DNA of 64,000 nt from Kudoa neothunni (taxonomy: Eukaryota; Animalia; Cnidaria). The stretch lies in the NCBI GenBank assembly GCA_964304625.1, contig OZ199840.1, forward strand, positions 2,024,532 to 2,088,531. Direction: 5' to 3'. This document shows positions 5,215-64,000 of this stretch, in pieces (within the stretch, counting starts at the first letter, position 1; each line of letters begins with the position of its first letter). The translations under genes were made by a program, and so were the position numbers. The notes below the pieces were generated by a model that was given only the letters and a program-made list of their open reading frames with translations, was not told where the DNA came from and searched no databases.

Positions 5215-5643
5215 CTAATATTTGTATTTGGTTGAGTAATCTTTGGGTGAGATAACGAGACCGCGTCCTTTTCTTGCGCCTCTATAAACAGTTTCTATGA
5301 TATCTATCATTTCCTGTGGATGTTCGATAGCCCAGTTGATTTTGTTGTTATTACCAGTGCCCAAATCGATCATCATATGTTTGTTGCGGAAGAAAAACAT
5401 CACAGTGCAGGGATCGTACAATTCGTACATCTTGTTGAAATCTGTCACTTGAGAAATATCCACCACATAGATTACGGCGAAGTTTCTCACCAGTTTGGCG
5501 ATTTTGAAGAGGGTTTCATCCATCATCATACAGGTGGGATCCCAATCATGTCCAAATCTGATAACAACCACTTTGTCCTCTTCGCTCAATATGGCTTGAT
5601 CGACTTGCCAGCCGTTGGTCAAATGTGGTAGCATACACGACAT
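5215..5643 (-). CDS. TXNL4A: U5 snRNP thioredoxin-like protein Dim1, 142 aa, CDS intronless
   Basis: MSCMLPHLTNGWQVDQAILSEEDKVVVIRFGHDWDPTC...GRGLVISPKDYSTKYKY is near-identical to Dim1. ATG at 5643; the ORF-track GTG start lies just after a TTTAG acceptor. Confidence 0.98.
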   Translation of the reverse strand: MSCMLPHLTNGWQVDQAILSEEDKVVVIRFGHDWDPTCMMMDETLFKIAKLVRNFAVIYVVDISQVTDFNKMYELYDPCTVMFFFRNKHMMIDLGTGNNNKINWAIEHPQEMIDIIETVYRGARKGRGLVISPKDYSTKYKY

Positions 5644-22482: not shown

Positions 22483-22519
22483 TATGTTGAATTGCGCGTG
22501 TGGACAAACTTATCCTTAA

Positions 22520-31421: not shown

Positions 31422-34017
31422 ATGAAGCGCAAACTATCGGTTCTCTCGGAGGAATTCTGCAAGGCTAAAAAGCTACCCATTCTGGACATGCCCGACCTTT
31501 CCAACATTACAACCAAGGTGGGTGGCAGTTATGGTTGTTGTATTGTGACTGAGAATGTGAACCAATGTTTAGGCTGATCTGAGTTTGAGCTGTCTCAAAG
31601 AGCAGAATAAGAATTTGGCAGTCGCTTTGGAGCAGCAAAAATTGAAACAAGCTGAACAGGCCAAGACTATAAAAGATTATGAATCTGTCCATTCGAAATT
31701 TTCCACAATAGCAATAGAGTTTAAAAATTCATTGATAACAGTAATGTGTTTCGGTTGATTATGGCTGGCTGATTTGGGGTTGGTTGTTTTAGTTGGTGGA
31801 ACACTTGAATACTATTCGCAAAGAGTATAACTGTAACGACGAAAATTTCTCCGATCTAAAACGTAAATGTTAATTTATCACTTTATCCACTGTATACACA
31901 TGTATACATGTGTATGTCTATACATTTATAACGGATTTATTTGATGTATGTGGTGTGTAGAGATTGACAGCATATTCACCAATATTGACTCCCACTCGAT
32001 CGAATCTATCTACACCCAAATAGCTACATTGAAAGAGATGCTGCCTACGTTGCTCAATCAATTGTTTGCCTCTTTCGTTCAACACAATTCCAATGGTGTT
32101 ACCGCAACAAATGGTTGTTTCAATGTGGATATGTGCAATTATCAACAACAAATTAAAAACCATGAGAACCAAATACAATGTTTAACCGAGAAATATAACA
32201 ACACCAAGATTGAGCTTAACGAAACACTTCAGGATATGGATATTCTTCGACACAAAATCTACATGATGCATGATCGTTATGAGGAAAAGCTCGATAATCT
32301 CGACCAAGCCACCAATCAACTGAAGAAAGAAAAGGCCGATTTGGTAGCCAATGCTGTGCATGTTCAAAATCAATTAGGTTCGAATTGTGAACCGCCGGCC
32401 GTCGAAAATAAGTCCGCTAATGGCTGTAACGATCCTGCGATTTTTAGTGACACAACCGCGACTATCACTGAACTCAACGATAAATCCAACCAATTGAATC
32501 TACTACAATCCAACTATGACCAACTTCAACAAACATACAATGAACTGAATCACACATTTCAAAATCTACAAACAACCCATCAACTTCTCTCGGATACACC
32601 ACTCTCTGAGAACCCTGAACACAAAATGCTACTAATGAAAAATAAGGTTCTGTGCGATGACAACCACCAAGTTAGAATATTTTTGTGTTCAAAGGATGAT
32701 CTCGTGTTGTTTTAGTTGCGTGAGTATCTGGAATTTTTCTGGAATATTCTCTCCGAAATCAGGTCTGTTATCAAAGACAATGCTGCCAAGTTTCGAGTAA
32801 CCAATCTGTCAATTATCTAAGCAATCGATTATGTTGATTGTCGTTTGTAGGAGAATATATCCAACCACATTGGTTTGATGATTGAAAATATAAAAACACT
32901 TGAACTGGAAAGGGATAATCTGCGAAATCAAGGTCTCAAAGATTCGCTACTTAAACAACGTTGCCAAGATGAAATCAAACAGCTTAATGAGACCATCTCC
33001 GATCTAACCGATATCAATACAACACTTAAGGTTTGTTTTTTGTAGATATCCGATTGTTATCCTACCGAATAGAATCAAAATAATTTCTATTCTTCACAAC
33101 TGAAAAAACAACATTGTGATTTGAATCTGGCAGCGGATAATGACGATGTGGATGATGACGATGTGCTGATGGACAAATTCACTCTAGAAGAAGCCAAAAC
33201 TAATCTTAAACAACAACACCTGTTGATCAAAAAACTACGGGCCGAACAAGAAACGTTTATAGCTGAAATGGAAATTACCGCCCAATCCTACGAGGAAACA
33301 TACGATCAGAATTCAAATCTTTTGGAGAAATTGAAAGAGAAACAAAACTCCAATCTTAGATTGTCATCTGATCTGTTCAAATGCAATCAGTCGATTCAGT
33401 TGTTGAATTCTCGATTGACCAGCTGCGAACAAAATTCACACTATGCCGACATACTTGAGCGACAATCGAATGATCTGTGTGAACGACTTAACGATGTTAA
33501 TTCACTTCGTATCCAACTTGAAAATAACCTCAATTGTGACACCTTCAAAAATAATGATCAGCTTTCCATCGATAAACTCAAAGAACAACTCATCGCGAAA
33601 CAACTCCAAGTTGATGCTAACGAAACTCAACTCAAAAATACCATCTCCAATAATTCCAATCTTAAAATCGAACTCGAGAATTCAAATAAAACCATCGACA
33701 ACCTCAAAACCAACCTTGAACAACTACAAAAACAACTCGAAGAGAAAACCCAATCGTTAGATTCGCTCACCAGTGCCAAAACTACCTCCTCCATTGATGT
33801 CTCCACTGATGCTATACTAAATGAACAGATTCGTATGTATAAATCGAAATTAACGTGTGCTTGCTGTAATTCCAATCCGATTAATGCTATTATTTATAAA
33901 TGTTTCCATTTGTTTTGTCATGACTGCCTACAAGTTCGTTATGACACACGACAACGTAAATGCCCAAATTGTAATATGACATTCGGTCTCAACGACTTCC
34001 ACAGAGTCTACTTCTAG
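31422..34017 (+). CDS. BRE1: E3 ubiquitin ligase BRE1 (RNF20/40 family), 7 exons, ~749 aa
   Basis: Exons ~31422-31517, 31573-31740, 31793-31862, 31961-32670, 32716-32796, 32851-33030, 33073-34017 splice in frame. Coiled coil with EMEITAQSYEE and C-terminal RING LTCACC...KCFHLFCHDCLQVRYDTRQRKCPNCN.FGLNDFHRVYF. Confidence 0.95.
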
Positions 34018-38490: not shown

Positions 38491-39302
38491 CTATTCAGAA
38501 ATGTTAAGAGCCGTTGTTTTGGTGTGTTCGTGTTTATTGACTCTAACTGTAGACTTGGAAGGATCAACCAAGTCCAACTCATAACTGTACACTGTAGCAT
38601 CGTTGTTTTGAATATCCAGAATCATATAAGAAGCGATAGCAGCTTTAGAGGAAGCACCGCTAAATGTTAACGATGAAAAATGGTTTTAATTGTTGGAAAT
38701 GATTAAAATCTTACGTGTCACTTGCCAACAAACAACCAGTAGCTGAACCCGGATCAATAATTAACAAGTTATGTGTTTGTTTCACTGACAACTTGTGATC
38801 TCCACCACAAATAAGTATATCTAGACGGTTTTTACGCGCATAAGTATCACAGCTTAATTCGCAATCTTGAGGGGTGAATTCGCAACTACTACACAAGCCT
38901 ACGGTGAAGTTCTCGATGTCCATTTTGATAAATGTTTTTAAATTTTTCATCTGAATAAAAAGTGTATCATTTCCTCGGTTATTGATAACCAATATAAAAA
39001 ATGATACTCTATCGAATTCCCCCCTGACACAATAAACTTTGTTGCAAACCGATTTCAAATAATCCATAGTCAACTTGCCAGTGACATTCCCAGTGCAGAA
39101 AATGTGTTGGATTTTTCCTGGTACCTACAACCAGTTAGTCATAATGAGTTAACAAACCCAAACAAGTTACTTACCAATAACTTACTCAGCGGTTCTGGTA
39201 TATTCGGAGCAAGTTGTGGGATGTACATGTTCCCTATCACCAATACTAGCTATAAACATTGATTTTATCTTTGTGGAACATTAAATACGAAGTTACCACC
39301 AT
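38491..39302 (-). CDS. VPS29: Vacuolar protein sorting 29 (retromer/retriever subunit), 5 exons, divergent
   Basis: MV|LVLVIGNMYIP...SKLL|VPGKIQHIFCTGN...VRGEFD|...DILICGGDHK...IDPGSATG|...SYMILDIQ...VYSYEL; canonical GT-AG introns in frame. Confidence 0.95.
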
Positions 39303-41415: not shown

Positions 41416-43137
41416 CCGTATATACTCGTGTAAAAGTCGCACTTTTTTTCAAAAAACTCTACTTCAGAAACCGCGTGCGACTTTAATTTTACATGAGACA
41501 TCGACGTAAAATTTAGGCTGGTAGTTAGTAAAGTATATAAATCGTCCGTAATAAGTTTATGTTCTACTTTTTATCATTATTTATAAAAAAATATTGTTTT
41601 ACTAAAAATGACGGAATTGTTTTGTTGATATTTAATACATATTTCACCAAAAAAGACATTGATATGACGCCAAATTAAAATTAAAATTTGCAGAATATGC
41701 TATCGAATGTGACAACAATCGACTTGCAGCTAATAAAAATGGAGTTAGCGAAAAGCAGGTACGCGATTGGAGAAAATCTGTTCTACCGTTGGAAGAAATG
41801 TCAGTTTCAAAAATAGCCAATAGGGGAACGACGTCAAAATTTATCTGCGAAGAGGAAGAGTTAAACAGGTGGATAAATGAAATGAGACAAAGCGGATACG
41901 TGGTGACGCGCGGAGCGATTCGATTAAATTCCAGATATTAAAAAGGACTCAAACTTGAAGCATCGGCTGGATGGTGTACGCGTCTAATGAACAGGCATAG
42001 TTTAGCTCTTAGACAAAGTACAAAAAATTTCCGTCCAATTTAGAAAACAAGATTATCAACTTTCATAAATATGTTATAAATATAAGGAAAAAGATAAATT
42101 ATGATCTTAGTCGAATTGAGTTGGAAACATGAACGAAACACCTATGTTTTTTGATGCTCCAGGTAACCAGAAAGTTGATAATATAGGAACCAAAACCGTG
42201 ACGGTTAGAACAACTGGTCACGAAAAAACACACTTTACTTTCGTTTAACCTGTATGGTGGATGGAACTATATTGTCTCCGATGATAATTTTTAAACGGAA
42301 AACGTTCCCAAAAAAAAATTCTCTCTTGGAGTCGTTATTCATGTTCACGAGAAAGGATGGATGCATGCATGCATGCATGTGGAAGGGCTTCATATTTGGA
42401 TGGAGAAAGTATGGTCTCATCTCCCAGATGGCAATTTGGATAAAAAACCATGTCTGTTAATTTGGGATATGTTCCGAGTTCATCTCGTTGATGATGTCAA
42501 AAACTACTATAAAATGGATACAGCTGTTATTCCTTCGGGCTTAACCTCAATGTTACAACCTTTAGATGTTTCTTTAAATTTTCCATTCAAATATAAACTA
42601 CGCGATCAATGGATCAAACGGATATCAGACAGATTGTCGGAAAAGACAGCACCAGAAAATTTTAAGAGACCTGCATTAGCATTGATAGCTAAATGGATAA
42701 AGATTTTCGGTTCTCGATAGACATGAGTATAATTAAGAAATCATTCAAAAAATGTGGCATTTCTAATGCGATGGAAGGAACTGAAGACGATATATTCTGG
42801 GAAGACGACGAAGTACACAATAATACGGAAGAAGAGATATACGACGATATACTCGGACATTTGAACAAAGTGCACGCCCTTTTGACGAGGATGAATTTTT
42901 GTCAGCTAAGGATGACGAGGATGAGTTTTTGTCAGCTAAGGATGATGATGACGACAATGAATATTAATAGTTTGTCAATTTTTTTTAATAATCAAAAATT
43001 TTTTGTATAATGAATATTTTCTTTGTTTGTCTTAAAATAATCGGATTTTATTTAAAATATATTTTGTAAATCGTTAAATGTTTAGGCATTAATAAATTTT
43101 TGATTAATAACTGCGACATATACTCGAGTATCTACAT
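41416..43137 (+). mobile_element. pogo-family (POGK-like) transposon, inactive
   Basis: TIRs TA|CCGTATATACTCGTGTAAAAGTCGCA and TGCGACATATACTCGAGTATCTACAT|TA. Broken ORF with Brinker-like HTH (VSEKQVRDWRK), CENP-B HTH (ASAGWCTRLMNRH), NMNETP, LIWDMFRVH, LQPLDVSLN, SFKKCGISN. Confidence 0.92.
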
Positions 43138-43314: not shown

Positions 43315-46300
43315 TCATTCCATAATTTCAATCAAAGTATCTAAGAACTTTGCTCGTTCAGTAGTCGGAATTTGGATGACTAAATGTTAAAATATTTACA
43401 TATTTGCGAAAACACCTAAATGATACTATTTGTTTTGAAATATGGCGCCAGCACTTGAAGACCTAAATGTTCAAGTGTTTTTTTGAAATATTCTCCAAGC
43501 TGGTTATTGGTGGTACAGGCTTCGTTGACAGCTGGCACACCAATAATAGTGGAGACATGTGGATCGTCGCTTTGTAGACAGAGAATTAACGGCATGCTTA
43601 GCGCCTTTCGATTTTTAGTCTACAATTAATCAACCTGATAGATTTACGCCCAACTAAAAACAAACATCCTACCAATGAAACATGTGCATTGAGGAGATAT
43701 TTTGCAAAAAAATCTAACACAGGTCCAACACTTTTGGTGACATGCGTGTGAAATCCCTAAAATTTGGCAATTACACCAGCCAGCATAAATAACGTCAATC
43801 CACGCATTGTGATGAGACCCACCTCAGGTATAACACCAAGATGAAAAGGTCCAGCAGAAATAACATAATGAAGATCGATAAAAGATTGAATTTGGTTGCA
43901 TATATGTTTGATCTAAGTGGAGATTCAATCAAAAATTAAGTCACTAATGACTATTACAGCAAATTTGGTATCTTCTAAAACACCGCCAATAATATCAATG
44001 GAAGAACTAATTGGAAGATCAAGTACACATGTAAAACAGCCAATTCAATTTAACAAATACCGATCCAGTATTTGTAAAGCCGATAGGTATTGACTGCTCA
44101 TATCATTAACAACATCAACATTCTATGAGAAAATCATAAAATTGAGTCTGAAAATAATAGCCGTATTTCTGGCATGTAAAATTTGTATATTATTAATACA
44201 TCTTTACAAAAGTCCAAACAGGTCATCACACAAAAAACAATATCTAAGGCTGAAATCTCTAGTTGGTAACCATAGTTCACCACGAATGAGGGTATGGTAA
44301 GATTTTTAATCCTAAACGGATAAGAATAGAGGGGTTGGATTTTATTTAATTATGGAGACGCGCACTCACCTAAATCTGTCAGAGTTCCTTTCAAGCATAT
44401 CTGTCAAGGTGTTTTTGTAAGTGACCGACATGAGTTGATATTTCTGTTGGCATTGCTTAATTGGCAATCTACATGGGTGTAATTGATGAAATAGGAAATT
44501 AAATATCACCCCACATGAGCCAAATATTCCATTAGTTTCTTCCTACCTTTGACTGTCCATATTTTGAAACTTTAACGTAAAGTAAAAAAATATATGAAAT
44601 AATTTAACAATAATTAAAACCACCTGCAAGATGTTGACAAAGATTTCAACATGCTCTCCAACAGCGACCAATGTCTGTAGAGAAAAAGATTCAACCTTGA
44701 GATATATTATAATTAATCATTGTGAGTGTGCGTTAGTCAATACTCATTCTTGTAGCTTATGCTCATTTTGTAACTGTCAATGTGAGTTCGATCGTGTCGA
44801 TCGTTCATACTGATTCTAAGGAGATGTTGTTGTAGATATGTAACTAAGCTAATGTAGTTTTCACTAGAAAGAAATTATTAAGCTTCTTCACATGAGTGAC
44901 TAATGAATGAGTAGATTTATAAATACGTCTTTAGCTGAAATAACTGAAATATGAAATAAAAATTGATAATATAATTTTAGTTGGAAATCCTCTCAATCTA
45001 TTCTATTATTTTGGAAAAATTAAATAACAAAAAATAATTAAAGTCTATCTAGTGTCCAAAAGACATGATTTTGAGTGCAATTATATATGTCTTAATAATT
45101 AGTCATCTATGATTATATTTTGTCGGATTAGGTTTTTTAAGAAATTTAAATTCGTAATATTTTCGTTATAAACGTATTATTTTAAAATGAGGATAATAAA
45201 AAAATGTCAGATATATCCAAAATTTGTTGACTTTGAACGAGTAATCGATCAAACTTGTGGATACAAACAAGGCTCTTATATTGGGAAATAAATATTTTAT
45301 CGTAAAGTAATAAAAAAAATTTTAAACCGATATTTTAAATTTTTAATCCTAAATAGAAAACACGTTTGTGTGAGGCTCATTTTTAATCGCAGTAACTCTT
45401 ATTTAGAGTTGAGTTTTTAAGTTGATTTTAAATAACCTGCTGTATTTAATTATTAACCACCCTCAAAATTACACTCACCTAGATATTATGATGTGTTGCA
45501 AGCAACATTTCTACTTTAGAAAGAATGATAAGAAGGCAATTAACTAGTTAGGAGCGATATTTTACGAAGCTCACTCAAGCGTAATGGGTTAGATTACCAA
45601 AATAAATTTGTCACCGACTTACGCATATCTCAAAAATATACAAATAAATAATTAATTTAATTCAATATTGTATTAAATGAAATTTGAAATAATACATACA
45701 ATTTAAATTAATGACTTAGAACATTATTTTCTCGCATAATTTGAGTAAAAACACATTAGACAAAATAAGATTAATAAACAAGCATCACGAACGCTACATT
45801 CAATTTAACTAAGACGAGTTAGATCGTCGTAAAATCTCGAGATAATTTGAGAGTTATTTAAATAATAATCAATTACCGTGACAATTTATCGCTAAAAAAA
45901 TTATAAGTAATCCCACATATTGTGCACCTAAACAATGTGATTAATAAAGTAATTATCAGTGTATATAATAAGTAATTATTGGACACAAACAATTATCCCA
46001 CATAAATTTCAACTACCATAAAATATCAAGATTATCTTTTCGTAACTTTACCACCAACTCAAACAAAATTTTACAACTCTACATCAAACATCCCGCATCA
46101 TCATAACCGCTGTCAATGTGACAATCCATATACCGGAACGGTGTGTCTGCATCCATCCATGTATTGATATTGTGAGGATTGCCTAGCAACATAATCCTCA
46201 TTGTTGCTATCGGCCACCATCTCATTATCATCTGAATTTGCCAACAAATAGTCCCGAATGTGTTCTTCACTAGGTATTCTACTTAGATCTTCTTCTCGAT

Positions 46301-46867: not shown

Positions 46868-48174
46868 TAAACTGTGTCACTTCCCAGATAATAATAAAGA
46901 TTCAACGCACACAGCCAACGTGCCGCTCGTAATCAATCGGATCCCGCCAAATCACATACCCAGTCATATGCTTGTCATATGTTTTTTAATCCTCCTACCA
47001 GTTTAAGCATATCTTGAAACTAATATATAGCCAATTAGAAGTTGAGTGGTAATTCAAACCTAAATCTTAGGGTTAATTCTATCATTAATTAACTAGACAA
47101 TTAATACTGCTGTAAGCAACCAATTTCACGCATTTTTGAAAACCCTATCTAATTAGAATATTGGTTGGTTATTGCTTATATAATATGTTTCTTGTAATAT
47201 TTCTATCAAAATTTGTAGAAAAATTATTTTATAAAGCTGCCAAATAATGTAACTGGAAGTCACGTGATCACACGAGTTGACGTACTTCCCCTTGGTCCCG
47301 GGGGAAATGCGTGAAATTGGTTCCTCATCGTATTTGTGAAACATATTATTTTACATATTAATTATTTAATGCGTTCGTTTTTTTTAAAATTCGATCTAGA
47401 ATTTAAAATAAGTAGGCTGTCGAAATATTTAGATAATGTAAAAATATTACGTAAACTAATCCCTAATTGACTAATATGGGCCCCATTGAATGATACATCT
47501 TAATCTCTCGCATTTCGATTATGTTTTCATTTACAGTTAAATGAAACCCCAAGTTTATGTTTATTTGTTATCCTCACTAAAATCTGTTGATAGTTGTGAT
47601 CACAAAAATGTATAAATTCGGTCAGTTTGATGATTGATTTTTTTATAAAGTAGAACTTCTGGCGCAACTTATTAGGTTGTGGAATTTTGATTGGTCAGAC
47701 CTTTTCCATTAACGCTGTAAGCAGCGCAGGACGTAACATGAAACTCCGTCCCTTATCCTTATGCAGTATTATGCGGTATTATGCGGTATTATGCAGAAGT
47801 GTGGGATTTAACACATTAAACACCCTCATCTCAAGGCGACCACCACCTCACCCTATCCCTTTAAGCACGTTGGCTCTCTGAGGCCTACAAATTACTTGCC
47901 TTTCGATGGGTTCCGGAGACTTCAACTCCTATTCACGCGAATTTGGCTGCTGGTGCATCCCACCTTACAGCGAGCGTACATTTTAACCGCAGCTTCCGGA
48001 TCAGATTTGATATCCGCACCCAATATAATTCTATAACATTATCGAGATTAACGGCTGAGCTATTCGTTTGTTTACCACAGCTAACACTAACACCGCACCA
48101 TCAGGATTACCGTCACCCAAACACGATATATAAGGATTAAGTCGCTATTTACAAACTACAACAACAACACAATA

Positions 48175-49037
48175 ATGATTGCACCAAGAAAGGCATTCAA
48201 TAAAATTTTCAGTGAAGAGGAAAATTCCATCAATTATATGATTGAACGGGGCATTCTTGAAGAGCCTACTAATTGCAGTAAAAATGGCGGAATCAGATTT
48301 TCGATTCACAGAAAAAATTGGCGCTGTTGTGCAAAGTCTTGCAGGAAAGAAGTCTCCATTTTTGACTTTAAAATCTTCAAAAATATGAAACTTAAAGTTA
48401 ATGATTTCATGGAGATGGCTTATTATTGGTTAGTGAGTGTAAAAATTCTTAACTAGACCATTATAACTGGTCACTCTTCTCAAACTATCACAAACTATTC
48501 GCATTACCTTAGACAAATGGTGGTCGACAGTTTAAGATTCGAGAACATCATAATTAGAGGAGAAAACACAATCGTAGAAATTGATGAGTCGAAGTTTGGT
48601 AAAAGAAAGCACAACAAAGGCCATGGTGTTAATGAAGCATGGGTTCTTGGAGGTGTCGAAAGAACACTAGAAAGAAGAATGTTTCTTGTGGAAGTCCCTG
48701 ATAGAACTACTGAAACTCTAATTAAAAAATAAGAACCTACGTTAAACCAAGCTCCATAACCATCACGGACTGTTCCAAAAGCTACGCCACACTTCATAAT
48801 GTCTACATTCACCTCATTGTTAACCACAGTATAGAATATATGAATAGTGTTTCGGGAGCTCACACCAACACTACCGTGGGCATTTGGGGTGCCATAAAAT
48901 ACCGAATATCTCCAAGAAATAGAACATCATCAGTTAACGAAGTTGGAATAGATCGTGTGGACGGCATTAATAAATTTCTTGGTGAATTCCAATGGAGAAG
49001 AATAAATCAACCTGACTTATGGAGTGGTTTTGTATAA
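48175..49037 (+). mobile_element. Merlin (IS1016/ISXO2-like) transposase, interrupted
   Basis: Zn-ribbon remnant (WRCCAKSCRKEVSI), VEIDESKFGKRKHNKG, WVLGGVER, TIITDC, VNHS, GAHTNTTVGIW, LGEFQWRR; internal stops and frameshift. Confidence 0.92.
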
Positions 49038-49227: not shown

Positions 49228-50920
49228 TCGGTTAGTATAATGTGATAATTGAGGTTATGAAAACGGATTACCGAAATTCTACTTTCATTTTCTTGTTTTA
49301 TTCTAAATGCCTTTATTTGGATTTATTATTTTTAATATTTTTCTCCTAATTGTATTACTTGAATAGAAAAAATAATAATATAGGTCAAAATTAAATTAGA
49401 ATAAATTATATATCTGAACAATTAAAAATATTTAAGTTAAAAAATATTCGAATTTTTGTAATAAGGCATATGAACATGAATAATAAAAATATAATTTAAA
49501 ACAATTAATTAATATTGAACTCAGCGGAAAAGGCCATGATTATTTTATCAAAAATATTGCAGAAAACTCGATATTGCGTAACTGTTTGGGACCAAAGAAA
49601 AGTCACGCAATACCAAGAAATTAAGCATTACCGAGACACACACATGTGTGATAAATACAAATAATTTTGTATGAAAATATTAGTTAATTCTACTGTTTTC
49701 CTCTCGTTTTTTTATTATTTGGTGTAAGAATTGTTGCTAAAGTTAACATACGCTCAATCAGCAGCAGAGTAATATTGCGTCACCACATTTAATCTATAAT
49801 ATATAGCTTGAGTGTTCAAACCCTACCAGCAACTATTCATTAATTTATAATGCTTGAATATTTTGATTATATCTTCAGTACTTCTCTGAGAAGTTATTTT
49901 CGGTATTTATTCTAAAACATCTTGAGTATTAAAGGGATCAAATTCAGCAGTTTGAGTTACGCGATATCAAAAGCACTAATTTTTCCAATTTTTTACAACT
50001 TTTACTAAATTAAACCTTCAAAAATACATTTTTGTCTTCATACATTGTTATTTCAATCCTTATCAAGATAAAATTATCAAAAAAAATGTTAAAATATATC
50101 GAATTGTGCAGCATCAAGAGTTTATTTTATTTAAACATAAATTAGATTTTTTCCAACGAAATAATCTTCAATATGCATATACGAACAATGTAATTTAAAA
50201 ATTAGTTCAATTATATAAATAGAATAATACAAAATAACAAAATGCATGCAGACAATCCCATTAAATATCTTATTTCTTGTAGCTGGATAAAAGACTATTA
50301 GATTACAATGGTATTATGGTCGTCACTCCTATTCCCTCAGCGATTTTAAAATTATTCATTTTTAACGATTAATATATGAAATATACTAATGCAAAACATT
50401 ATTAATTAAAGTATGAAGGAAGTAAAACATCAAAATATTTGCAACATGATATTGATTATAATCATTTCATTACAACGAGAAAATGAAGTTATAGATATAT
50501 GTTTAACACAAATCCTACAAAAAATATGTAATCTGGGTATCAACTCTAAACCAATATTATTACACAATATAGGAAGATAACAACTAACCATTAAGAATTT
50601 GATGTCTTTATCTTATTTATTTTTAGGTGAATAATATTTTCGAGGGATTCATTAGTTAGTAAAATATAAATGTATATTACCTAAAAAAATTAATTCTCAC
50701 AATATTATTTAATAAAAATGATATAATAATTAAACATTTATATAATTTAATAGTTTAAAGAAAAAAACTACACAGAGACTAGCCATATTAAATTTTATGG
50801 TCAATCTAAAGAGATTATTCAAAGTTGAAATCCGAAATAAAAATGAGAAAAAATAAATCTTGGTTTATTATTATTAATGGTACATTTAAGTATTTATTGA
50901 ATGATTATATTGAACTTTAG

Positions 50921-53900
50921 GTGTAATAACGTTGACAATACTTATGCAAAATGAGCTGGTTGAGACGATTCATATGAAATGTGAAATCTTAAGCGAATCA
51001 ACCCCTCCAATAATAAAATTAAAACTTGTTTCAAATAATTATGATAGCAACGGGATGTGTGAATTAGAACATTACAAAAGATTAGATAGGATGTACAATG
51101 TTAAGGCTGGTATTCAAAAGTATGAAGGATTAAGTAATGGACCGTTTAATTGTGGCGACGGTTTCAGCTTTAATTACAATAAAATATCACCAAAACTAGG
51201 TTATATCAAACTTACTATTAAATCATTGAACAAATACAAAAAAGACGAAAAATTTATACTTGGTCTCAATGCAGGTATATTTCACCCAAAACGGTTAAAC
51301 TAACTATAAATAATATCCAGAAATATTTGGTTATATTAATATTAAATTGAAACTTGATGGATCATCGTTAAAGTTCAATTTTGAAAGATGTCCTGCAATC
51401 TACTGTTTTCTCCTTTATGGCGACAATTCTGTGTTTTATGAAATCCATGCGGGTGAACTTGAATGCTCGAGAACTGGCCTGGTGAATGATAACAATTTAT
51501 TTCATTCCAAGGCCACGCATATTTTTGTGTTGTGCTCTCGAGCCCCCAATCATTATTTCTACCTCCCTAGTAAATATCAGCTGACGGCTTCCGATATTTA
51601 CAAACCGCAATACAGTGTGGTATCTGTGAATCGTGGAGGAGAACATAGATATCATTTGATGTTTACTAATGAACCTTTTGGTGATATATGCTATTTTGCA
51701 ATCAGGGAAGTGCCGACAGATGGAAGAGTTCGTGGTAATTATTCATCCAGCTGCAGTAGCGCTTCAGGAATGAACAAGTGCTTTGCTCCTTGCAGGGATA
51801 TTCAAATCACACTAAAAAAATTCATTTTTGTGGAAATATTGATAAAGACAAGATATCACACCTTCAATGATGATACTAGTGGCTATATCGATATTAAATA
51901 TGGTATTATATTTTGGTTTATTGCATTGTTACACCAATAAATAGTTCACGATAATTCTACGGCAGTTTCCAAAGGAATAATAACAGATATAACCACACTC
52001 AGTGCTGTTTTAAATGCCAAGTTATATGGATCGGTTCATTGTAGAGCGACAAAAACTTGTTGCACCGTTGGACAGTACCCTGCAGAATATACAATTGATT
52101 ATCAACACTTGGAAAACAATATAGATTTATCTCTGAAAAAATATGATTTATGTGACGATTTTATATATATGGAAGGATTGATGAGTGGAATTGCGTATAC
52201 AGTGTTTTTAAAAATCAACCTAAACAACAATATTAGTTATTACGAAAAGATATTCTTTAAAACAAGTATTTAATTATTGTTAATATGGATATCACACTGG
52301 ATTATATTCCGCAGAGGGTACACATAATATATCATCATATACGATAAAAGAAGATGGTAACAATACAACGACTATTTCATTGAAGTTTCCAGTTGAATCT
52401 GATCGTCGCTTTTGTGAATATTACACCAGCTTAATGGAAACCAAACTTTATGGAAGAACGAATTGTGATGATCACAATGTTTGTCGTAAACCCTGCGATG
52501 AGAATGTTACAATTAGGGATATATTACCCTTTGCTGATTACGATATAAAAGTCATCGTTGATTATCATTTCAATGAAAAACATATAAAATGTAAGTTGTT
52601 TTGTTTATATCTCACATCTATCTGGTATCTGTAAAGTTGAAGGTTCTCTCAGAATAATATCAAAAAGATTCGAAGAGGGGATTGAAGTAATTGGATATTT
52701 TGTTTTTTATGACGCAGAAAGTGTTTTGTGTCACTACAATATTTATGAGAATGATAATGGCGAATACAAATTAATTTATGGCTGCCCTGCTAATAGAAAT
52801 CCCATAAAACCAAAAAATAGTCATTTTAAATATTCCAGGTCATATGATAAAGAGCGAGGTGCATGTTCACATGTCCCAACCTGTGCTCGGTTTGATTTCG
52901 TTGAATATTACAAGAGCGACAAGCAATACCTTATTTGTGTGGAAGCACAACTACAAATAACCAAACCCAAATGTATTATGATTCCAAAAGGTAGGCCACA
53001 TAATATTAGTTGAAATCGAATTATTTATTATAACTAATGGAAGATAAATGTTAGTTTATTGTCCTTCAATTATAAACATAGTTTTATAGATACATCAAAG
53101 CAAGTAGTAAGTCAAATAGTTTTAAAAATATATTTTGGCGATCGATCTATTCATGTTATTGCTATTCTTCCGAACCAAATCCAAAAATTTAATAGTGAAG
53201 CAAAATGCGAATGGAGCCTAGAAAAAATCTTTCCTGATTATTCTGAGTTGGTTTATCAGTGTAGCGAGAACTTTACAAAACATTGCGTTGAGAAATCAAG
53301 ACCATGCGACTCTTTCACCATAAAAAATATTGGTGGTGCTCCTATGTATCGATTGACTGTTTACTATCAAAATGCCAGGGAAATAAGTGGAAGCCTTATA
53401 TTCAATTACAACCTAATAGAAATCAGTGTTATTAGGCGAGGCGAATTCCTGAATGTATATGCCACTCTACCGATAAGAATAGAAGATGACGGCGCTACAT
53501 GCTCTTGGATGTTATGGAATGTGTATAATGGAACATTAAAGTTTGCGAAAGAATGCTCTGCTAGAAAACCGAATGGTTGTGCTGACCGAATTACACTTTG
53601 TAGTAATTTTACCATTCAAAATAATTGGAGAATACATGCCTATAAGCTGGATGTATTTTATGATGTGGATAATGAAATCAGAGGAAGTACTACGATTAAT
53701 GTTAACCTGCTCGACCTGATCGTTAACCTTCACCATAACAAACTCAAGGTTATCGCTCATCTACCGGGCGAAATCATTGATGACAATCCCTTATGTTTTT
53801 GGAGGTTGTACAAAATTGAATCAAATGTTCAAAAAATTGAAAAAGAATGCTCAGAAGAAAAGAAAAAAGACTGCGATAAGCAATTGACATCATGTCACTC

Positions 53901-55346
53901 CTTCGTTATTGGCGGTATTGTTTCTAATCGTACCTACTTGTTGGAAGTGTACTACGCTTTCAACAGCACCATCCGCGGAACCGTTGTATTTGAAACAAGT
54001 AAAAACTATCTTGATATTTTTAAATTTTATATAAAATATAGCGGAAGACAAAATGTATAAAATTTCAGTTAATAAAAAGTAATCTTTATCAATTCTATTT
54101 TCCTCATTTTTATGTAAAGCAATTATATTGATTTAATATAATACATTGAAAATTTGATTATTTATAACCAGAGATTAACACTATGAATTGAACTTAATAT
54201 AAAAAAATATTATATAGAAATGTTAAGTTATTTATGAATAGAAATTCTTTGTTTGTCTCTCTCTTTTAATTTGTTTCCTGAAATAAGCACGTGTTACATA
54301 ATTTCCACCCAATAGAGAAACATTTATGAAACTTTGAAGTATATTAAATTTTATCTATTTATTATTAAAATTTCATGAGTTTTAAAAACCTTCAAAAAAT
54401 GGCAATTATAAATATTTTAAATTGTCAAAAGCATTATACGATATTGATAATAAGATTAGAACTCGTTTATTTCAGAGTGGTGAACAGTTGAAATTAACAT
54501 TCCCAATTATGTACTGAAATTATTTGTTAATTTAACTATATCATTTTTCTGTGTGGGGGAATGTATTTTTGTAGAAACAAGCGTATTGTTATATTGTAGG
54601 AGATTAAACCGAAAAATTAAAATTAATCGTCGTAAGTTTTCAATTAGTTATATCAATTTTAATTATTACGTGCTTTTTAAAAATGAATTTTAAACGAGTT
54701 TTTATTTCAATTCTTTTCTTTATGGGTTAAGAGATTTTTCAAAGTAGAATATGCCTAATCTCGGATGAATCTAGGAACTTCAAGCTAGTTTGGAAATCCG
54801 TAAGTATGTTAAATTATTCGACAAAATTAAATATTAATAATAATCTAAAACATAGGTTTGATATACTACCATTTTAAAATAGACTTAAAAACCTTTTTAT
54901 AGTCCTAAAGTAAATAATATTAATTAAATTGTTGATTATCGAATATAATAATTATTAAATTAATAATTTCGTAAAATTAAAGGGCAATTGTTTTAATTTT
55001 TTGAATCAAAAAATGTTTGAATATTTTTGTAAGAAATTTTAGATAACAAAATATTGATATTTCTGTATTGTAATTTAGATAATTATACAATGGATATCCT
55101 CTTTTAGTGGAAATTCATTTTATACAATTATTTTGACCAATACCTAATTTCGATGTATGAAATTATTCAAATATTATGAATTTTAGGACGATAATGATAT
55201 TTTTGGCTGTTTCGATACCGCTCATAGTGCTTGCGGTGGTTGGTTGGGTTTGTTATCGATTCATGAGCAAAACACGATATGATTTCGAACAAGCTGGCAT
55301 GCACGAAAATGAATTTGGTAATTTACTACTAAATCCACGTTCTTAA
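50921..55346 (+). CDS. Single-pass membrane protein with ~9 tandem cysteine-rich FN3-like domains; 5' end and some small 3' exons unresolved
   Basis: Exons 50921-51274, 51321-51902, 51945-52265, ~52315-52590, ~52652-52990, ~53044-53998 separated by phase-1 introns. FN3 signatures ITDITTLSAVL, EGLMSGIAYTVFL, TIRDILPFADYDIKV, IGGIVSNRTYLLEV. Last exon 55187-55346 has TM IMIFLAVSIPLIVLAVVGWVCY plus a short tail. Confidence 0.7.
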
Positions 55347-56874
55347 AACAATTATTTTGTTCATTTACTATTTTTTCATTTCTCCTATAACGGTGTTTTT
55401 ATATTGCAATTATTTTACATCTTGAAACACAAAATATAGGGATATTTAAAAAATAAACGAAATTAAAATGATTAAACTACACTTTATTTTCAATAATATA
55501 GAAAAGTTTTCAACTTAATATTTAAAAAAACTCCCTAGGTTAATCCTTTTTTGCTCGCATTTCGCGCATGCGCGTGGTATTTTGAAGTTTGGATTGAATT
55601 TTTTTCGACTGCAATAAGTTGATTTCAATAAATTATCAATAACAACCCATCTTAAATGTAAATTCATATTTTAACTTTGTTGATTTAATTGCCAAAGTAA
55701 CGTTAGCATTGGTTATTGAAACGGAACTCTTTAATCTAAAATCGATTATACGCATGCGCGTGTTCCAATTTTAATCCCGATAACCCATATTTATAGTTGA
55801 TATATAAAATTCATTCTTCAGAATATGATGTATTTAATTATTTTAAATTAGAATCTTATTATTATTTTTTTAATTCAATATTTATTCAGTAGTTTTCAAA
55901 AATAAAAATCAATCCTGAATTATCCAAAATTTTATTTAATAACATAATCAGTGACCAAAAATTAATTAAACTCTGATTATAATCCGTTACAAAATAACCA
56001 AGAACATTTTTTGTTTTTAATTATCGTTTCATAATAAGAATAATCTCTTAATAATTCATATAATAAACATTAGTCGAATTTTAAACAAACTTATTACGAT
56101 TGATCGTGTAATATATTTTACTCGGACTCAATGTGGTTTCAAATATGGTAAAATGTTTTATCGCATGTTCAAGTCATTCTAATTTCGTGGAATTACTAAA
56201 TATTTGTTTTCAATACTGCGGTGAATTTATAACGAATGTGTTTACGCATTTAAAATCTGAATATCTACGTGATTTTGTATACGAAATATTTTTAAATAGT
56301 AATTACAATCAATTAATCAATTGTGAAACCATTGAAGTCTTTCTCAATATTAAAATACGATGAAATAAACATCACAGAGGTGATCGGAGCTAATGATAAT
56401 GATAATAATAATATTAAATCGCCAGACAAATCAATAAACACTGATACAAAGTATATAACCGTATCTGGAAAAATATACTAAAATTACTTTCCATATTTTC
56501 CCATTTAATTTTATTATTCAAATTTTTTTCAAAAATTACTAAAAAGATATAAAAAGTAATTTAGATCACTAAGTAATCCTCGTATAGTTATTTATGTTCC
56601 CGAACAATTGTATACAATGCCGATTAATACGATTTGTTTGTGATGAGCTTAATTTATATTCGGTCGTTAACGCATCTCTTAGTTTAACTATTTCGAACTT
56701 ATATATTTTAGAAAATAGTAATAAAACCCTTGCCGATCTTAATTTTCAATATTGAAATACATTCTAAATACTCCTTTATATTTATCACCTAGGAGATTTG
56801 GGGCGAGTATATTCGATATAGATTATAGTGATAGATAGGCTGTGTGATTGTTGTGTTCGTGTAGGCACTTTAAA

Positions 56875-58448
56875 ATGATTGGTGCTTTGTATATTTTGAA
56901 TCACAAAGGTGATACAGTGATTCAACAATCATTTGATCCGGATATTCCGTAAATATAGTGAGTTTTCAGCTCCCCCCACTATAATAAACCTATAGAGCCA
57001 ATGCGATAACTTATTTTCGTGTGAACATTGTACACAAAAAGGGTGCCTACAATTTGGAACCGGTGAACAAGATTGACCGTTTCAACTACATGCACATATT
57101 TTTAACCAAGGGACTATGGTTGGTGGCCATTACAATGCAGAATACAAATGCTGCTATGGTGTTTGAATATCTTTCACAATTTAGAAGAATCCTACAGTCG
57201 TATCTTGGCGAATTGGATGAATATAGATTGGCTAGCAAATTTCCATTGCTGTATGAACTGTTTGAAGGTTGGTCAGTTCACTCAGCAACAAATTCCACCA
57301 TTTGTATAATAATCATTTTACTGCATTATAGATACGTTGGACAATGGATACCCCCAAATAACAGATATATCGTCGTTGAAAACATGGATCACTCAAAAAT
57401 CACTAAAAAATGCCAACAAACTAACTGATGCTGCCAACCTGACCAATCAACTAACCGGTCAAATAACATGGCGAAAACAAGGCATTAGATACAGGAAGAA
57501 TGAAATTTTCGTGGATATGAGAGAAAAGGTCAACCTGCTTATGTCCGCACAAGGGAAAGTTCTTAATTCTTCGGTTGATGGATTTATACTGGTGAAAACA
57601 TTCCTCTCTGGTATGCCTGAATGCAAGCTGGCTATTAATGACAAATTTATGGTGGAACAAAATGTCCAAACAAAGAATACGCCTGGATCGTGAGTGCAAT
57701 TTGTATATAATTGTTTTTCGAGTTTAATTTAGAAGACCTAAAATTTCGGTAGCTTTGGATGACTGTGTTTTTCATCAGGTACCCATAATAGGAATTCATT
57801 TACACCATTTCCTACGATTGAGACAATATCTATTAATGTTTCTTCATGTAGTGCGTCAAGCTGAGCAAATATGAAACAGATAAAACCATCACATTCATAC
57901 CACCAGATGGTAAATTCGAATTGTTGAGATACAGATCTAGCCATGACGTGCTTCTTCCGTTTCGAGTTTTCCCTATGGTTCATGAGAGGGGTGACACTCG
58001 GCTAGAAATGCAAATCGCACTCAAATCCAATTTTGTCGAAAGTCAAATGGCTTTCAAGATCGAGGTCGTCATTCCAGTGCCTAAAAATGTGACTAAGGTC
58101 ACCACCTATCCCACCAAAGGCAGAACCAAATATCGTAAAGGAGACAATGTGATTGCGTGGCGTATACGGAAAATGCATGGGATGAAAGAGGCTAGACTAT
58201 CTGCGGAAATTGATCTCACTCCAACTGCGATTACCTCAAAGGCACAAAAAGTCATTGGGAATCCTTCTCATTCTAGAAAGGAAGGCCGCCCTCCAATCAG
58301 TGTCAACTTTGAAACTGCTTTCAGTTGTTGTGGTATGAGTGTACGCTACCTAAAAGTGCAAGAACCAAAACTGAATTACGGCAATAATTCTGTTATAAAA
58401 TGGGTACGAAATATCAGCACGAATGGTACCTATGAATTCCGTTTTTAA
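56875..58448 (+). CDS. AP2M1: AP-2 complex subunit mu, 5 exons
   Basis: MIGALYILNHKGD, FRVNIVH, NTNAAMVFEYL, DNGYPQ, LTNQLTGQITWR (T156 site), YRKNEIFVD, FLSGMPECK, LDDCVFHQ|CVKLSK, FIPPDGKFEL, VRYLKVQEPKLNY, VIKWVR. Introns at ~56949, 57268, 57690, 57778. Confidence 0.97.
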
Positions 58449-60378
58449 TTTTATCAATTCTTCTCTCTCATTCTCTCTGTCATTGTCTCATCCAACCTAA
58501 CAATATGACCTTCGTCTGTTGAATTAACATTAATTTTCTTATTTTTTATGGATTTTCTTTTCATGCGCTTAGTTTTCATTTATATTTTTTATAAATTAAT
58601 TGCTAATTATCAATTTATTTAATGTTGGTTATCACGATCAAATTTTTAAATAAGAATTCACCCTCGAAAAATGCTTTGAACAATATGTAGATTTTTTCCC
58701 CAAACTTTTTTTTAACCTGCGGTAGTAAGTTTAAAAAATAAGCTACCATTAACGCATTGATTATATAGTTATTAATATTCATTTTCGTATAAAATAATTA
58801 TTCTTATGAATTATATTTGAAAATTCCTGATTTTGAAGGATAACTATAGAAACTAACTATTCATTTACCCAATTAATCATTAACTCTCCCGGTCCGAAAT
58901 GGGCTCATTAGTGACCCCACGTGAGTTATTTTTGGTTCAACAGCAAGAATTGTGATCTCACCATTTAATGCATCTAGGAGTAGCTCGAAAGAGCTACGAG
59001 TCTTGAATTGAACAAATTTTTAGATCGTTTTAACCATTCAATAATATAGTTATGCCACATGTTTTATGAGGAAATATTATTCTTTGTTTTATTTTTCAAA
59101 AAAAAGTATAATTGTGTCAATTTTATATTTATTTTTTAAGATTCCGTAGGGGTTGAATATGAAGGGTATAGTCGGCGCTTTATAGTAACAGATTTGACAT
59201 CTTTTGGGGAGATACTGTGGATGCATTTTGTTATTTTATGCATTTATTTTCTTTCATTTTATTTAATTCCTTTGAATGTTATTCTAAATTTAATTATTTT
59301 TTTCAAAAACGTTCTGGAAAAGTGCGTAAAATCGGGCAGTCACATGGTAAACAATCAGGGAATTTCTCAACCATAATATGTTATTTATATCCAAATTCTT
59401 CAATAAAAATATTTAAAAAATATTATATATCGATCGTACATTTTATTATTTAAATTTAGTTGCTTTTTAAAAATGGTGTAAAACCAGTCACTACACTGAC
59501 TGTAATGACAGACAGATTAAACACCTTATTCGAGTTATTGCTGAAGTATCTTATTATGTTATATTTTTATTCTATCATCCGGTAATTTTTTTTAATTTTT
59601 TCCGATATTAAAAAATAACTTAATTATTTTTTGCATTAATCTGATTAAAAAATGTACAAAACATGCTCACCAAGTGATTAATATTATGGAAATTTCACAA
59701 CCTTAATATATACATATTATACATCTAACCATTCAAATTATAACACTTTTGAAAAAAAATGTGTATATCGGTTAGCTCGGCTCGGATATAAGCAGATAAG
59801 GAAGTGACTATTGGTACGGTAAATAATATTCAGGTGACATTAGTTTTGACTTTGTTTAATTATTTTTAACCCTCCATTTTCTTCTTAGAAGTCGGAAATA
59901 ATTAAATAAAGCAACTTGTAAAAAATTAAATATATGCACAGCTTGTAATTAAATGTTGTTGAGATTAAAATTTTCCAGCGCGCAAGCGTACATACTTAAT
60001 AACATAAAATTTTACCGTGCCAGTAGCTTTGTCTGCGGAAAATCACTTATCTACTGTAGTAATAAAATATAAAAAAATCCAAAATGATACTGAATACATG
60101 ATTACTTAAACATGTTTTGCGTTTATATAAAAATATGAAAAAAATCGGATTAATTTCCGCGCGACAAAATTCTATTGACACATAAATGAAACCAAATATC
60201 TCTGATTTCCCCCTTAATAATTAACCCATATCTTAACTGTTCATTCCTATACAAATAAAACCTAATAAATTCCCCCGTGTAATTATTTAGAAATTCACGT
60301 ACGTATTCGTTTCTAGATAATCACCAAATTATAAAATTTAAATTCCGCCTTATTTCGTATTGAGTCGTAAAATTTGAA

Positions 60379-62089
60379 ATGAGGAGCCTTGTGCAACGCA
60401 TTTCTCCACCAAATGTCCAACACATGTATCCATTCATTCGTTCATTGACTACCTCCAAACGAGTAGTATATCAAGTTTAAGCTGGGTTGTAGTTTACAAT
60501 AGGTGGATGCTCGTGTGACACTGCTTGGTGCGAGTAACCCTTCCGGCTCAATGTTATCATTGTTATTGAAACAAAACCCATATATTTCAACTTTAAAGTT
60601 GTACGATGATGATAAAAATCTAAAAGGTACAAAAAACTGTTGAACTGTTATTGATTTATTTATTTAAACCAAGGAATGACAATGGATTTGAGTCATATTG
60701 ATACAGGTTGTAGGGTGTGTTGTTTTTTGGTGTGTTTATAGCTGACTTTAATCGTTGTTAGACCCATTGTTATACTGGAATGGAGAATTTAAAGTACGCT
60801 ATGACTAGCACCGATATTCTTGTGGTGAATAACCTGGATGTGGACGGTAATTTTATTTTGTCTCTTTAATTGATTCCATGTAACCCCTTACCCAATGTAA
60901 TATTTGTTACTCTAACAATTTAAATATACTTTAAATATAATTTTAACGATTTTAAGTCATTTTTTATTTTTCTATCTATTAGCTAACGATGGAGAACTAT
61001 CTGGTATTAGTCGAAAAATAGACGAAATTGTGATTGAAATGAATCAGTAACAACAGCATATCATACCTCAATTGTTATTTAATTCATTACTCCATTATAG
61101 TATAAACCAAATACCAATTGTGGTTGTCATGTCAGACCCAGTATAATTTTAAGGTAGTTAACTCCCTTTAAATTACTCAAATAGGTGGATATAATAACTC
61201 CAATTTTTGGTCGTTTTATGTATTTGGAGAAATTTTTTGATGAAAAAAAGTGATGGAATTTTATGAGTGTACATAGCATAATTGATATCAACTTGCTATT
61301 AGACTTATCGGCCTACCAACATTGTACACGGTGCTGGGTAATTTGATAATGGCGAAAAAACTTAAGAACTACCCCGAGGAGAATAACATATTGATGTATG
61401 GAGGTGTGAATGGCGATGATTCTGTTTATTTCTGGACCGAAAAATTTTACCCTGTAACATAACAACGTGATAGTTGTCGGTCTGCTGCTAACGGTGAGTT
61501 GGTTAGGAGCAAACTCTTGAAACTTGTGAGCAATTATTCAAATCTGTTGAGACAGACCTTCAACAATATATGAAATCTTTCAGTGTGGTATTTGATAATT
61601 GATAATAGTCGAATGTAATCTATTGTTCTCAAGAATAAGATGAATAATTTGAGGGCGTATTCGGCTCATCGATTTATTTCCAGTGTAACAAATTTTCTGA
61701 GTGATTCAGACTTGATTATTACACTTGATAATAGATGGCTGAAAGTTTTTTACGCAAGAGAATGGTGGTGGAATCCTGCTACGTTTATCATGAAGGCACC
61801 TACATGACATATCCTTGTGTGCTGGGTGTAATAGTTTGATTGGACTTTTGTTTATAATCGAATGGTGTTATTTGTTTTAGCGAGAGGGAGTTGAACAGAT
61901 AATTATCAAGAAAGAAATTGAGACTCCTAAATTTTTTGTACCCTAAAAATTAAAATTTATAATCATAATTTCTTATCTACGCCATTAATTTAGGCTTCTA
62001 TTAAGAATCACATTGATTACATGGAAAAGTATGATAATCACACTCGTATGCTTACCGCCATTCCAAAATCCCGCGATGATCCCTACTAA
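60379..62089 (+). CDS. Mitochondrial malate dehydrogenase (MDH2)-like protein, predicted catalytically dead, 12 exons, ~350 aa
   Basis: Exons 60379-60462/5, 60503-60626, 60674-60714, 60762-60846, 60983-61046, 61101-61140, 61185-61249, 61303-61453, 61507-61587, 61634-61795, 61881-61937, 61994-62089 join in frame. Presequence ...FIRSLTTSKR, ARVTLLGASNPSGSMLSLLLKQNP.ISTLKLYD, MDLSHIDT, SDPVD, KLIGLPTL, MYGGV, AYSAHRFISSV. Confidence 0.88.
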
Positions 62090-62799
62090 CCATCCACATC
62101 AATTTATTCGAAATTATATTTGATTTCTTTTCTGCGTGCTCGTTTTTAAAAATTCTATTTATATTTTTAAAATAGTTTATTAGTTGAGTTTCTAGTTGTT
62201 TTTGGAGCCAATAAGTTATTTTTGATGAGTTAAATCGGTAAAAGAAATTCAAAATAATATAGCAGTCTATACTTGTAGATAATCGTAGTTTTCTGAATAA
62301 TACATAATTAATAGACTTACGATAGATTTAGGATTCTATTTAAATAATACATGAGACGAAATTCCGCCGAACGTATCTTGTTGACCATGCCATTGCCAAG
62401 ATAGGTTGGAATAACATAGAAAAAACAATTTTTCGTAGCAAACTCACGGAATTGCATAAAATAAATATTCTAATGTGTATACTAATTATGCAATTTGGCT
62501 GATATTTTAACATAAAATAGTCTTTAATGGCGCTTATAATTTTCGCACACTGCTCTTATTTTTTTCATTTTTTCACTTTGTCATAGGTTTTATTTGTTGT
62601 GGAACTGTTCAATGGGTTATCTATTAGAAATTCTATTTCTTGCTCATTGACGCTTTGACATTCTTGCAGGTTTATCCAGTCCTAAATGCGACTGTTCGAA
62701 TGATGCTTTAAAACATTTATGAAAGTTTTCCGCATTGTTCGAGGTTCGAGGTCCGAGGTCCGAGGTCCGAGATTAACGATAAATTTTCCATTACTCTTT

Positions 62800-63850
62800 T
62801 CACGAGTTCCACCAAGCCGTTATAGGATACTTACCTAAATATAGGAAACTTTTTTCGAAATAATCTAGAAATGGCGTTAATGATATTTCAGTTATTTTCC
62901 TAGATTCTATCTCCAGTTTTTCATATCCTTCTGAATAAAATTCCGCAGGAATGAATATGTTGATGAAGTAAAAAATTTGACTAAAAGTCTAAATTCCACA
63001 TTATTTTTGTAATCCCCTCCAAACACATTACCCTAAATGAAAAGTACAATAGTTGATACTTGAAAATTTCAAAAGATGCATATTCAAAAGCTGTAATTAT
63101 ATTATGTGGAATTTTTATATTAATTTTATTAATTAGTGTGTTCATAAATATATAGCAAGATTCTAGATTTTTTCTTTTCTTTAAAACAAAAACTGGAGGG
63201 TAAAATTTATCGAAGAATCCCTCATTAAGGGTGTAGAGCTGTGAAAACTCTTTACGAACAACATAAAAAGTTCTATCTGCTACCATCACAGTTGAATTAT
63301 TTATTTAAGTGCTCAATGTTCTCCTTTGTTGTAAATATTACAATGCTTTGACTGTCATTCGGCCAGAGTTATATAAGCAGAATTTTTCACCTCTTAACGT
63401 ATTTACCTGGATTGCACAAAGATTTAAAATATGTGATTATGTAATATTCCCCATTTTTCTTTCATTTTATATATTTTTATGGTTTTTTGTAAATAAATTA
63501 ATTAGGTTTTCATTGACTGTAGCCAACGTAAAAATTTACAGGTAGAATATGAATATTGTATCGATTGCGCAATTTCGTTAATTTTGCAATTAGGCTTAAT
63601 ATTTTCAATATCCGTTTCTGACATAACCTAATTATGTAATCCTGACTCTTGTATGAAAGTCACATCATCTGAATTATTTGTTTTTACTCGCTCTTTACAG
63701 GTTCTTACAGTACATCTCCAGAGTTGATTTTTTGACGTTTTATATCGTGTACATACAAAAATTTGTTATATAACAATTTTGATTTCCCTCTGTTGAATTT
63801 TATGAGCTATCGTATGACAACCAAAAAATATTTATCCTATATTCCATTTG
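62800..63850 (-). mobile_element. FLYWCH-type MULE transposase remnant
   Basis: LWRCTVRTC (FLYWCH), VADRTFYVVRKEFSQLYTL (DGTF...FxQLYT), IITAFE, TNNAI; multiple lesions. Confidence 0.75.
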
Positions 63851-64000
63851 TATTATCATATTCGATATCCATTTGTTTTATTTTATAAACACAAGGTATG
63901 CATGTTTTTTATAACTAAGAATTAAAATAGTCATTTATTTGATGCACGGTAATGGAATAAATTAATTCTCATTATCGATCACAGGGAAAAATTATTTGCT

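Follow-up and report, generated by a model that had tools for sequence, protein, structure and literature searches.

Enzyme paralogues that have lost their activity are a familiar class of protein, and dead proteins of the mitochondrial malate dehydrogenase (MDH2) type already lie in the databases, in beetles. A described partnership that bears on them is the mouse MDH1/MDH1B heterodimer, a strut of radial spoke 3 (10.1101/2025.05.19.654877; PMC11779644), in which a divergent MDH paralogue pairs with the housekeeping enzyme and takes a structural role, as is only proposed for the gene described here; it differs in belonging to the cytosolic MDH1 family, in being ciliary and in carrying an additional N-terminal domain. 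The available text of 10.1101/2025.05.19.654877 does not state that MDH1B is inactive, and there the activity of the heterodimer is not known. The Drosophila S-Laps and the testis Mdh2 paralogues CG10748/CG10749 resemble the present case as duplicated metabolic enzymes with mitochondrial targeting, the S-Laps with degenerate active sites, but the S-Laps have another fold than MDH. Among the literature matches listed, taken as main texts without supplements and with most subscription papers outside the scope, we found no description of a catalytically dead MDH2.

The window, by which we mean the whole 64-kb stretch of DNA analysed, holds a previously unannotated real gene for a degenerate MDH2 homologue (Table 1); it counts as unannotated because the pieces tested have no exact or close database match. 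All three exact look-ups of gene pieces were negative, and a longer-protein search with exon 2 returned three candidates, none scoring. The spliced coding sequence of 1032 nt translates into 343 aa and a stop, with no stop inside the frame, and the alternative frames of the joined sequence hold 27 and 33 stops. All 12 introns are GT-AG and measure 40-136 nt, the same size class as in the neighbouring AP-2 mu gene (56875-58448, plus strand; introns ~45-75 nt); their median of ~51 nt compares with intron lengths given as 57 for Intoshia linei and 27 for Dicyema (PMC6543705), and as 20-25 for Thelohanellus (PMC4986447). The earlier note had joined 12 exons, none of them in its ORF track, into an uninterrupted frame of ~350 aa. 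The open frame is borne out and no exon is among the window ORFs of at least 80 aa, but the exons number 13; every motif quoted (GASNPSG, NLDVDANDGEL, DPVD, LYTVL, GGV, LSLLLK, DLSHI and AYSAHRF) is present.

Table 1. The degenerate MDH2 homologue and its exons, in positions of the window
Feature	Position	Strand	Content
Whole gene, degenerate MDH2 homologue	60379..62089	+	13 exons, 12 introns, 343 aa
Exon 1	60379..60462	+	aa 1-28, predicted mitochondrial presequence, hydrophobic moment 0.6
Exon 2	60503..60626	+	Strand 1, glycine loop GASNPSG (60527-60547, degenerate), helix B, strand 2 with D63 (Asp34 equivalent, kept)
Exon 3	60674..60714	+	Helix C, DLSHI intact
Exon 4	60762..60846	+	Strands 3-4, beginning of degenerate active-site loop
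Exon 5	60983..61046	+	Loop end, helix E; 5' end uncertain (acceptor 60994 scores +1.1 bits)
Exon 6	61101..61140	+	Strand 5, D145-P146 at end (Asn119 replaced); next intron = human c.429
Exon 7	61185..61249	+	Splice model
Exon 8	61303..61453	+	Y176 for Asp150 (61325), L179 for Arg153 (61334), V203 for His177 (61406)
Exon 9	61507..61587	+	Donor 61585 or 61588, at most 1 bit apart
Exon 10	61634..61684	+	AYSAHRF, part of interface helix
Exon 11	61735..61827	+	Next intron = human c.885
Exon 12	61881..61937	+	Splice model
Exon 13 with stop	61994..62089	+	Homology does not settle the acceptor (competing sites within 0.3 bit)

Varying every GT/GC donor and AG acceptor in the flanking exons, junction by junction, gave 164 open junction forms for scoring, a count that includes the 12 chosen junctions. 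The chosen form is the best-scoring in-frame one at nine of the 12 introns, and at introns 1, 4 and 12 it lies no more than 1.1 bits off. Alternative exons might have restored the catalytic residues, as the same note had allowed; none of the 164 forms yields RKxG, GGH, LD..R, NP.N or G.GG.G. Intron retention is rejected, each retained intron breaking the frame, as is a cassette exon in intron 4, for which there is no open candidate. The motifs GGH, RKPG and NP[VI]N are absent from all frames of 57500-64000. Four runs of one sample, which may be the source of this DNA, yielded contigs that carry no differing bases within the gene; some 450-550 nt upstream, at 59798-59960, their summed depth is high with many loose ends, likely a dispersed repeat. 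RNA data are uninformative on expression: read counts over 56800-62600, a region that includes the AP-2 mu control, are 1, 0 and 0 in three raw metatranscriptome runs, and an RNA contig set has no match on the gene region.

A profile made from 12 canonical MDHs (E. coli, six of 15 bacterial loci and five eukaryotic proteins) gives the gene product 97.1 bits and none of 500 shuffles more than 7.3 bits; the match spans profile positions 3-279 of 312. Exon 2 alone finds mitochondrial-type MDH chains as its best PDB matches (top E=4e-5), a weak Ldh_1_N match in Pfam (E=0.018), short Ldh_1_N clusters only in a protein-cluster atlas and, as its sole NCBIfam match, TIGR01772 (E=4e-6, at a score far under the whole-protein cutoff). 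Identity is 24% to eukaryotic MDH2 and 23% to the E. coli enzyme; fly and E. coli share 55%. Set against MDH2 (TIGR01772; PF00056 and PF02866; PDB 4wle, 2dfd, 1mld, 1emd), over ~290 alignable residues at 24-27% identity, the protein has in common a presequence-like N-terminus, introns at human c.429 and c.885, and the kept helices B and C and Asp34. It differs in the replacement of His177, Asp150, Arg153, Asn119, Arg87 and the glycine-rich loop, in a loop/helix E region ~4 residues shorter, in a shorter C-terminal helix region and in its 12 introns. Homology over both domains points to descent from the MDH2 branch of the LDH/MDH superfamily.

Intron positions bear on the age of this copy. The splice variants c.429+1 and c.885+5 document two intron positions of human MDH2 (PMC9676216), the two used in our comparison, which we placed after Pro143 (P143/V144) and Gly295 (G295/K296) by counting from 4wle, a numbering checked against Arg104, Val160 and Ala256. 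Introns 6 and 11 of the present gene lie at exactly these positions and in the same phases; the rough chance of both matches is (12/1030)^2, or ~1e-4. Intron 1 presumably also sits at the position of human MDH2 intron 1, and introns 4 and 9 are, we assume, within two codons of human positions. With introns at human MDH2 positions, the gene is an old genomic copy and not a retrocopy.

In the numbering of E. coli MDH (L017), Asp150, Arg153 and His177 are replaced by Tyr176, Leu179 and Val203 within one gap-free, high-posterior stretch inside exon 8, and Asn119, aligned at high posterior, by Asp. The glycine loop has Asn for Gly10, Pro for Gly11 and Ser for Ile12; Gly7, Gly13, Asp34 and DLSHI are retained. 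Arg87 has no counterpart in the multiple or profile alignments. The state of Arg81 depends on the alignment: MAFFT opens gaps of 11 and 15 residues to bring R122-K123 onto R81-K82, and roughly two in nine pairwise settings pair R122 with a loop arginine at the price of long gaps, whereas both profile alignments set NNLDVDANDGEL on the active-site loop, not R122-K123 on R81-K82 (loop 79-91 of MDH is described in PMC12522045). Loss of the entire catalytic apparatus, as first claimed, holds for His177, Asp150, Arg153, Asn119, Arg87 and the glycine loop, with Arg81 ambiguous between MAFFT and profiles. The protein falls short of an active MDH2 in the His177/Asp150 proton relay, in the substrate residues R153/N119/R87 and in the NAD loop GxxGGIG. 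By the established mechanism, MDH chemistry is not expected without the His/Asp pair, and since no such pair is left here the protein is predicted to be enzymatically dead.

A gene without catalysis could be decaying. In simulations of neutral decay under AT-biased mutation, with frame and splice sites scored as intact or broken, the probability of an intact gene was 0.37 at 0.01 substitutions per site, 0.09-0.14 at ~0.02 and 0.007 at 0.05, and from 0.1 upwards no run of 300 stayed intact, a level of change that leaves the protein 80% identical with the starting sequence. With identity to eukaryotic MDH2 down to 24%, the simulation implies that the frame was preserved as the protein diverged. 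GC content is 37.5% in the coding sequence and 25.7% in the introns (p=6e-7), and GC1 exceeds GC2 as in the neighbouring genes. Because neutral decay would break the gene long before its present divergence, it has probably been kept by selection. The retained pseudoenzyme proposed in the earlier note thus finds support in the intact frame and splice sites, in coding-like composition and in a simulated probability of intactness that has dropped under 0.01 by 0.05 substitutions per site. The lineage itself is very fast-evolving, as marked by the low identity of the AP-2 mu last exon (51-55% to ten animal orthologues, which share 72-92% among themselves). Lineage rate fails to explain the loss of residues that are invariant from E. 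coli to flies, two proteins 55% identical. In metagenome scans, exon 8 matched none of 475 stretches, and AP-2 mu found no relative and one weak locus at 32%.

Searching exon 2 against 1.84 billion representatives gave three matches: two degenerate MDH2-like fragments, both with degenerate glycine loops, and one unrelated repeat protein. One of the fragments, used as a query, returned 16 proteins, of which ten come from seven beetle genera, one is a degenerate fragment and five are canonical MDHs. Five of the beetle copies, from leaf, seed and bark beetles, were tabulated (P0131, Leptinotarsa, XP_074032301.1; P0136, Dendroctonus, XP_019756995.2; P0165, Callosobruchus; P0172, Acanthoscelides; P0170, Diabrotica). 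They lack His177, Asp150, Arg81, Arg87, Asn119 and Gly7/Gly10/Gly11, and retain Arg153, Asn94, Asp34 and DLSHI, with Gly13 and Asp34 present in five of five. Together with P0128, which is truncated before the His position, they form a conserved clade at support 98/93, and all six are annotated as ordinary malate dehydrogenase; dead MDH2 copies under such a label are counted as active in pathway reconstructions. The predicted P0133 and P0134 include a fused peroxiredoxin gene that is probably just a neighbour. In the protein-cluster atlas P0131 leads to three MDH-like clusters of largely arthropod membership (89, 68 and 180 proteins).

The beetle copies and our gene product share the loss of His177, Asp150, Arg87, Asn119 and the glycine loop, the retention of Asp34 and DLSHI, and presequence-like N-termini. 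They differ at Arg81 (lost in the beetles, alignment-dependent here), in Arg153 and Asn94 (kept in the beetles), in identity to canonical MDH2 (30-33% in the beetles, 24% here) and in the replacement residues, the gene product having six of 67 beetle-specific states. In a 20-row tree it has a branch length of 5.1 and comes out as sister to the degenerate clade with 93/93 support, unstarred; a test of placing it with Glossina MDH2 instead does not reject that alternative (p-AU 0.23). Possibly, though less likely than not, the gene product and the beetle copies belong to a single ancient pseudo-MDH2 family that has escaped description and has persisted even in a compact genome evolving very fast. 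The beetle copies look like extra paralogues, and beetles presumably have an intact MDH2 besides. Repeated retention, in beetles and in the present animal, points to a non-catalytic job of the MDH2 fold in animal mitochondria, one that we did not find described among the literature matches listed.

The first 29 residues contain five R/K and no D/E (a probability of 0.016 given the composition of the mature protein), and in composition and amphipathy the N-terminus is like those of MDH2. Identity to canonical eukaryotic MDH2 is 46% over strand 1 and the glycine loop, 69% in helix B, 44% in strand 2 and 62% in helix C; the remaining segments mostly lie at 5-40%, with two other interface helices at 19% and 27%. 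The unit from strand 1 through helix B and strand 2 to helix C appears to be the part best kept by selection, and degenerate copies of several beetle genera retain these segments too. Helix C, with DLSHI, packs on the partner subunit in the MDH dimer. Over 84 invariant positions, by class lists of our own and with the doubtful MAFFT match at R81/K82 counted as kept, the protein conserves 11 out of 31 at the ligand site, 11 out of 24 at the interface and 7 out of 29 elsewhere. Retention is no different at the ligand site than over the remaining positions (18 of 53; p=1), and the interface does not differ significantly from the other positions (p=0.15), so that significant interface-specific conservation is rejected. 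The dimer-interface segments had been held to be the best conserved; that stands for helices B and C and not for the other interface helices.

The explanation we favour, tentatively and a little short of an even chance, is a retained and dead second copy that would work beside an intact MDH2 encoded elsewhere in the genome. Its presequence would direct import into mitochondria, the kept helix B/helix C surface would be the dimer face to the intact enzyme, and the non-catalytic subunit would serve as scaffold or regulator of active MDH2. This reading starts from the homology, the open spliced frame, the two ancestral intron positions and the loss of the His/Asp relay, Arg153, Arg87 and Asn119, and adds to them, as suppositions, expression, purifying selection, import, an intact MDH2 elsewhere and dimerisation. 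With helix C kept and the protein's own substrate-side helix drifted, the pattern is as of a one-sided partner of an active subunit. The interface enrichment of p=0.15 counts against such a partner, as do the equal retention of ligand-site positions and the low identity of the two other interface helices (19% and 27%), and tblastn found no intact MDH2 within the 64-kb window. The PDB matches of exon 2 include the chloroplast MDH entries 8xku and 8xkv, which we take to be chloroplast MDH within an import-motor complex.

Unlikely, though the best placed of the alternatives, is an S-Lap-like structural protein that assembles by itself in germline (sperm) mitochondria, without calling on an active MDH2 partner. 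S-Lap1 and S-Lap6 are inactive components of paracrystalline material (PMC6388916), testis-specific Mdh2 paralogues of Drosophila sit in spermatid mitochondria (PMC6154878) and are dated to more than 180 My (PMC7560327; PMC11012351 is a further source for this comparison), and extreme divergence is typical of germline mitochondrial copies. The main text of PMC6388916, however, mentions neither malate nor CG10748/CG10749, and the available text of PMC6154878 and PMC7560327 does not state that the fly Mdh2 paralogues are catalytically dead.

We think it quite improbable that the protein is the organism's sole MDH2, the TCA step being lost or rerouted and the dead protein kept for an essential non-catalytic role. 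Ancestral introns (hence no retrocopy), a very fast-evolving lineage, the unrejected grouping with canonical fly MDH2 (p-AU 0.23) and a 64-kb window without a second copy speak for it, but comparable beetle copies occur in aerobic animals that need active MDH2, the reduced parasite Thelohanellus retains a complete TCA cycle (PMC4986447), and one window is a tiny share of a genome. A broken TCA cycle is the less likely because the parallel beetle copies look like extra paralogues, and we regard it as unlikely; were it true, the animal would lack a full TCA cycle and would reveal an essential moonlighting role.

More doubtful again is a sensor of NAD(H) or adenylate that binds nucleotide at the adenosine end, or a new chemistry. 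Gly7, Gly13 and Asp34 are kept, the last two also in all five beetle copies, and conservation is highest in the N-terminal Rossmann half; against this, the Gly10, Gly11 and Ile12 replacements disrupt the pyrophosphate loop, and the His/Asp pair for 2-hydroxyacid chemistry is gone. Very unlikely is a recently silenced pseudogene that bears no lesion yet, which needs silencing within ~0.02 substitutions per site, where the probability of an intact gene is 0.09-0.14, and in which the catalytic residues would have gone earlier, under a maintained frame. The least credible reading is an error in the splice model or in the alignment that hides a catalytically competent product: junctions 1, 4 and 12 leave more than one choice, and an alignment of R122-K123 with R81-K82 is feasible, but the His177, Asp150 and Arg153 positions lie in one exon and align gap-free, GGH, RKPG and NP[VI]N occur in no frame around the gene, and the contigs hold no differing bases in it.

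Elsewhere in the window, housekeeping genes lie at 5215-5643 (-), 31945-34017 (+), 38711-39124 (-) and 44137-44542 (-), a set made up of Dim1 (PF02966), a coiled-coil RING protein that we take to be Bre1-like, a metallophosphoesterase-fold protein, presumably VPS29-like, and CDC45 fragments. Broken remains of DNA transposons occupy 20740-24423, 41663-43010 and 48091-49037, with ZSWIM/MULE-like, DDE_Tnp_1_7 (piggyBac-like), DDE_1 with Brinker HTH and ISXO2-like types represented. A run of long cysteine-containing ORFs at 50914-54060 (+), six of which were tested and gave no Pfam match at E<=0.001, is possibly a lineage-specific surface protein. At 16875-19217 (+), a 780-aa ORF with tandem EPSTIVETTTL-type repeats and a hydrophobic stretch at its end encodes a mucin-like membrane protein.
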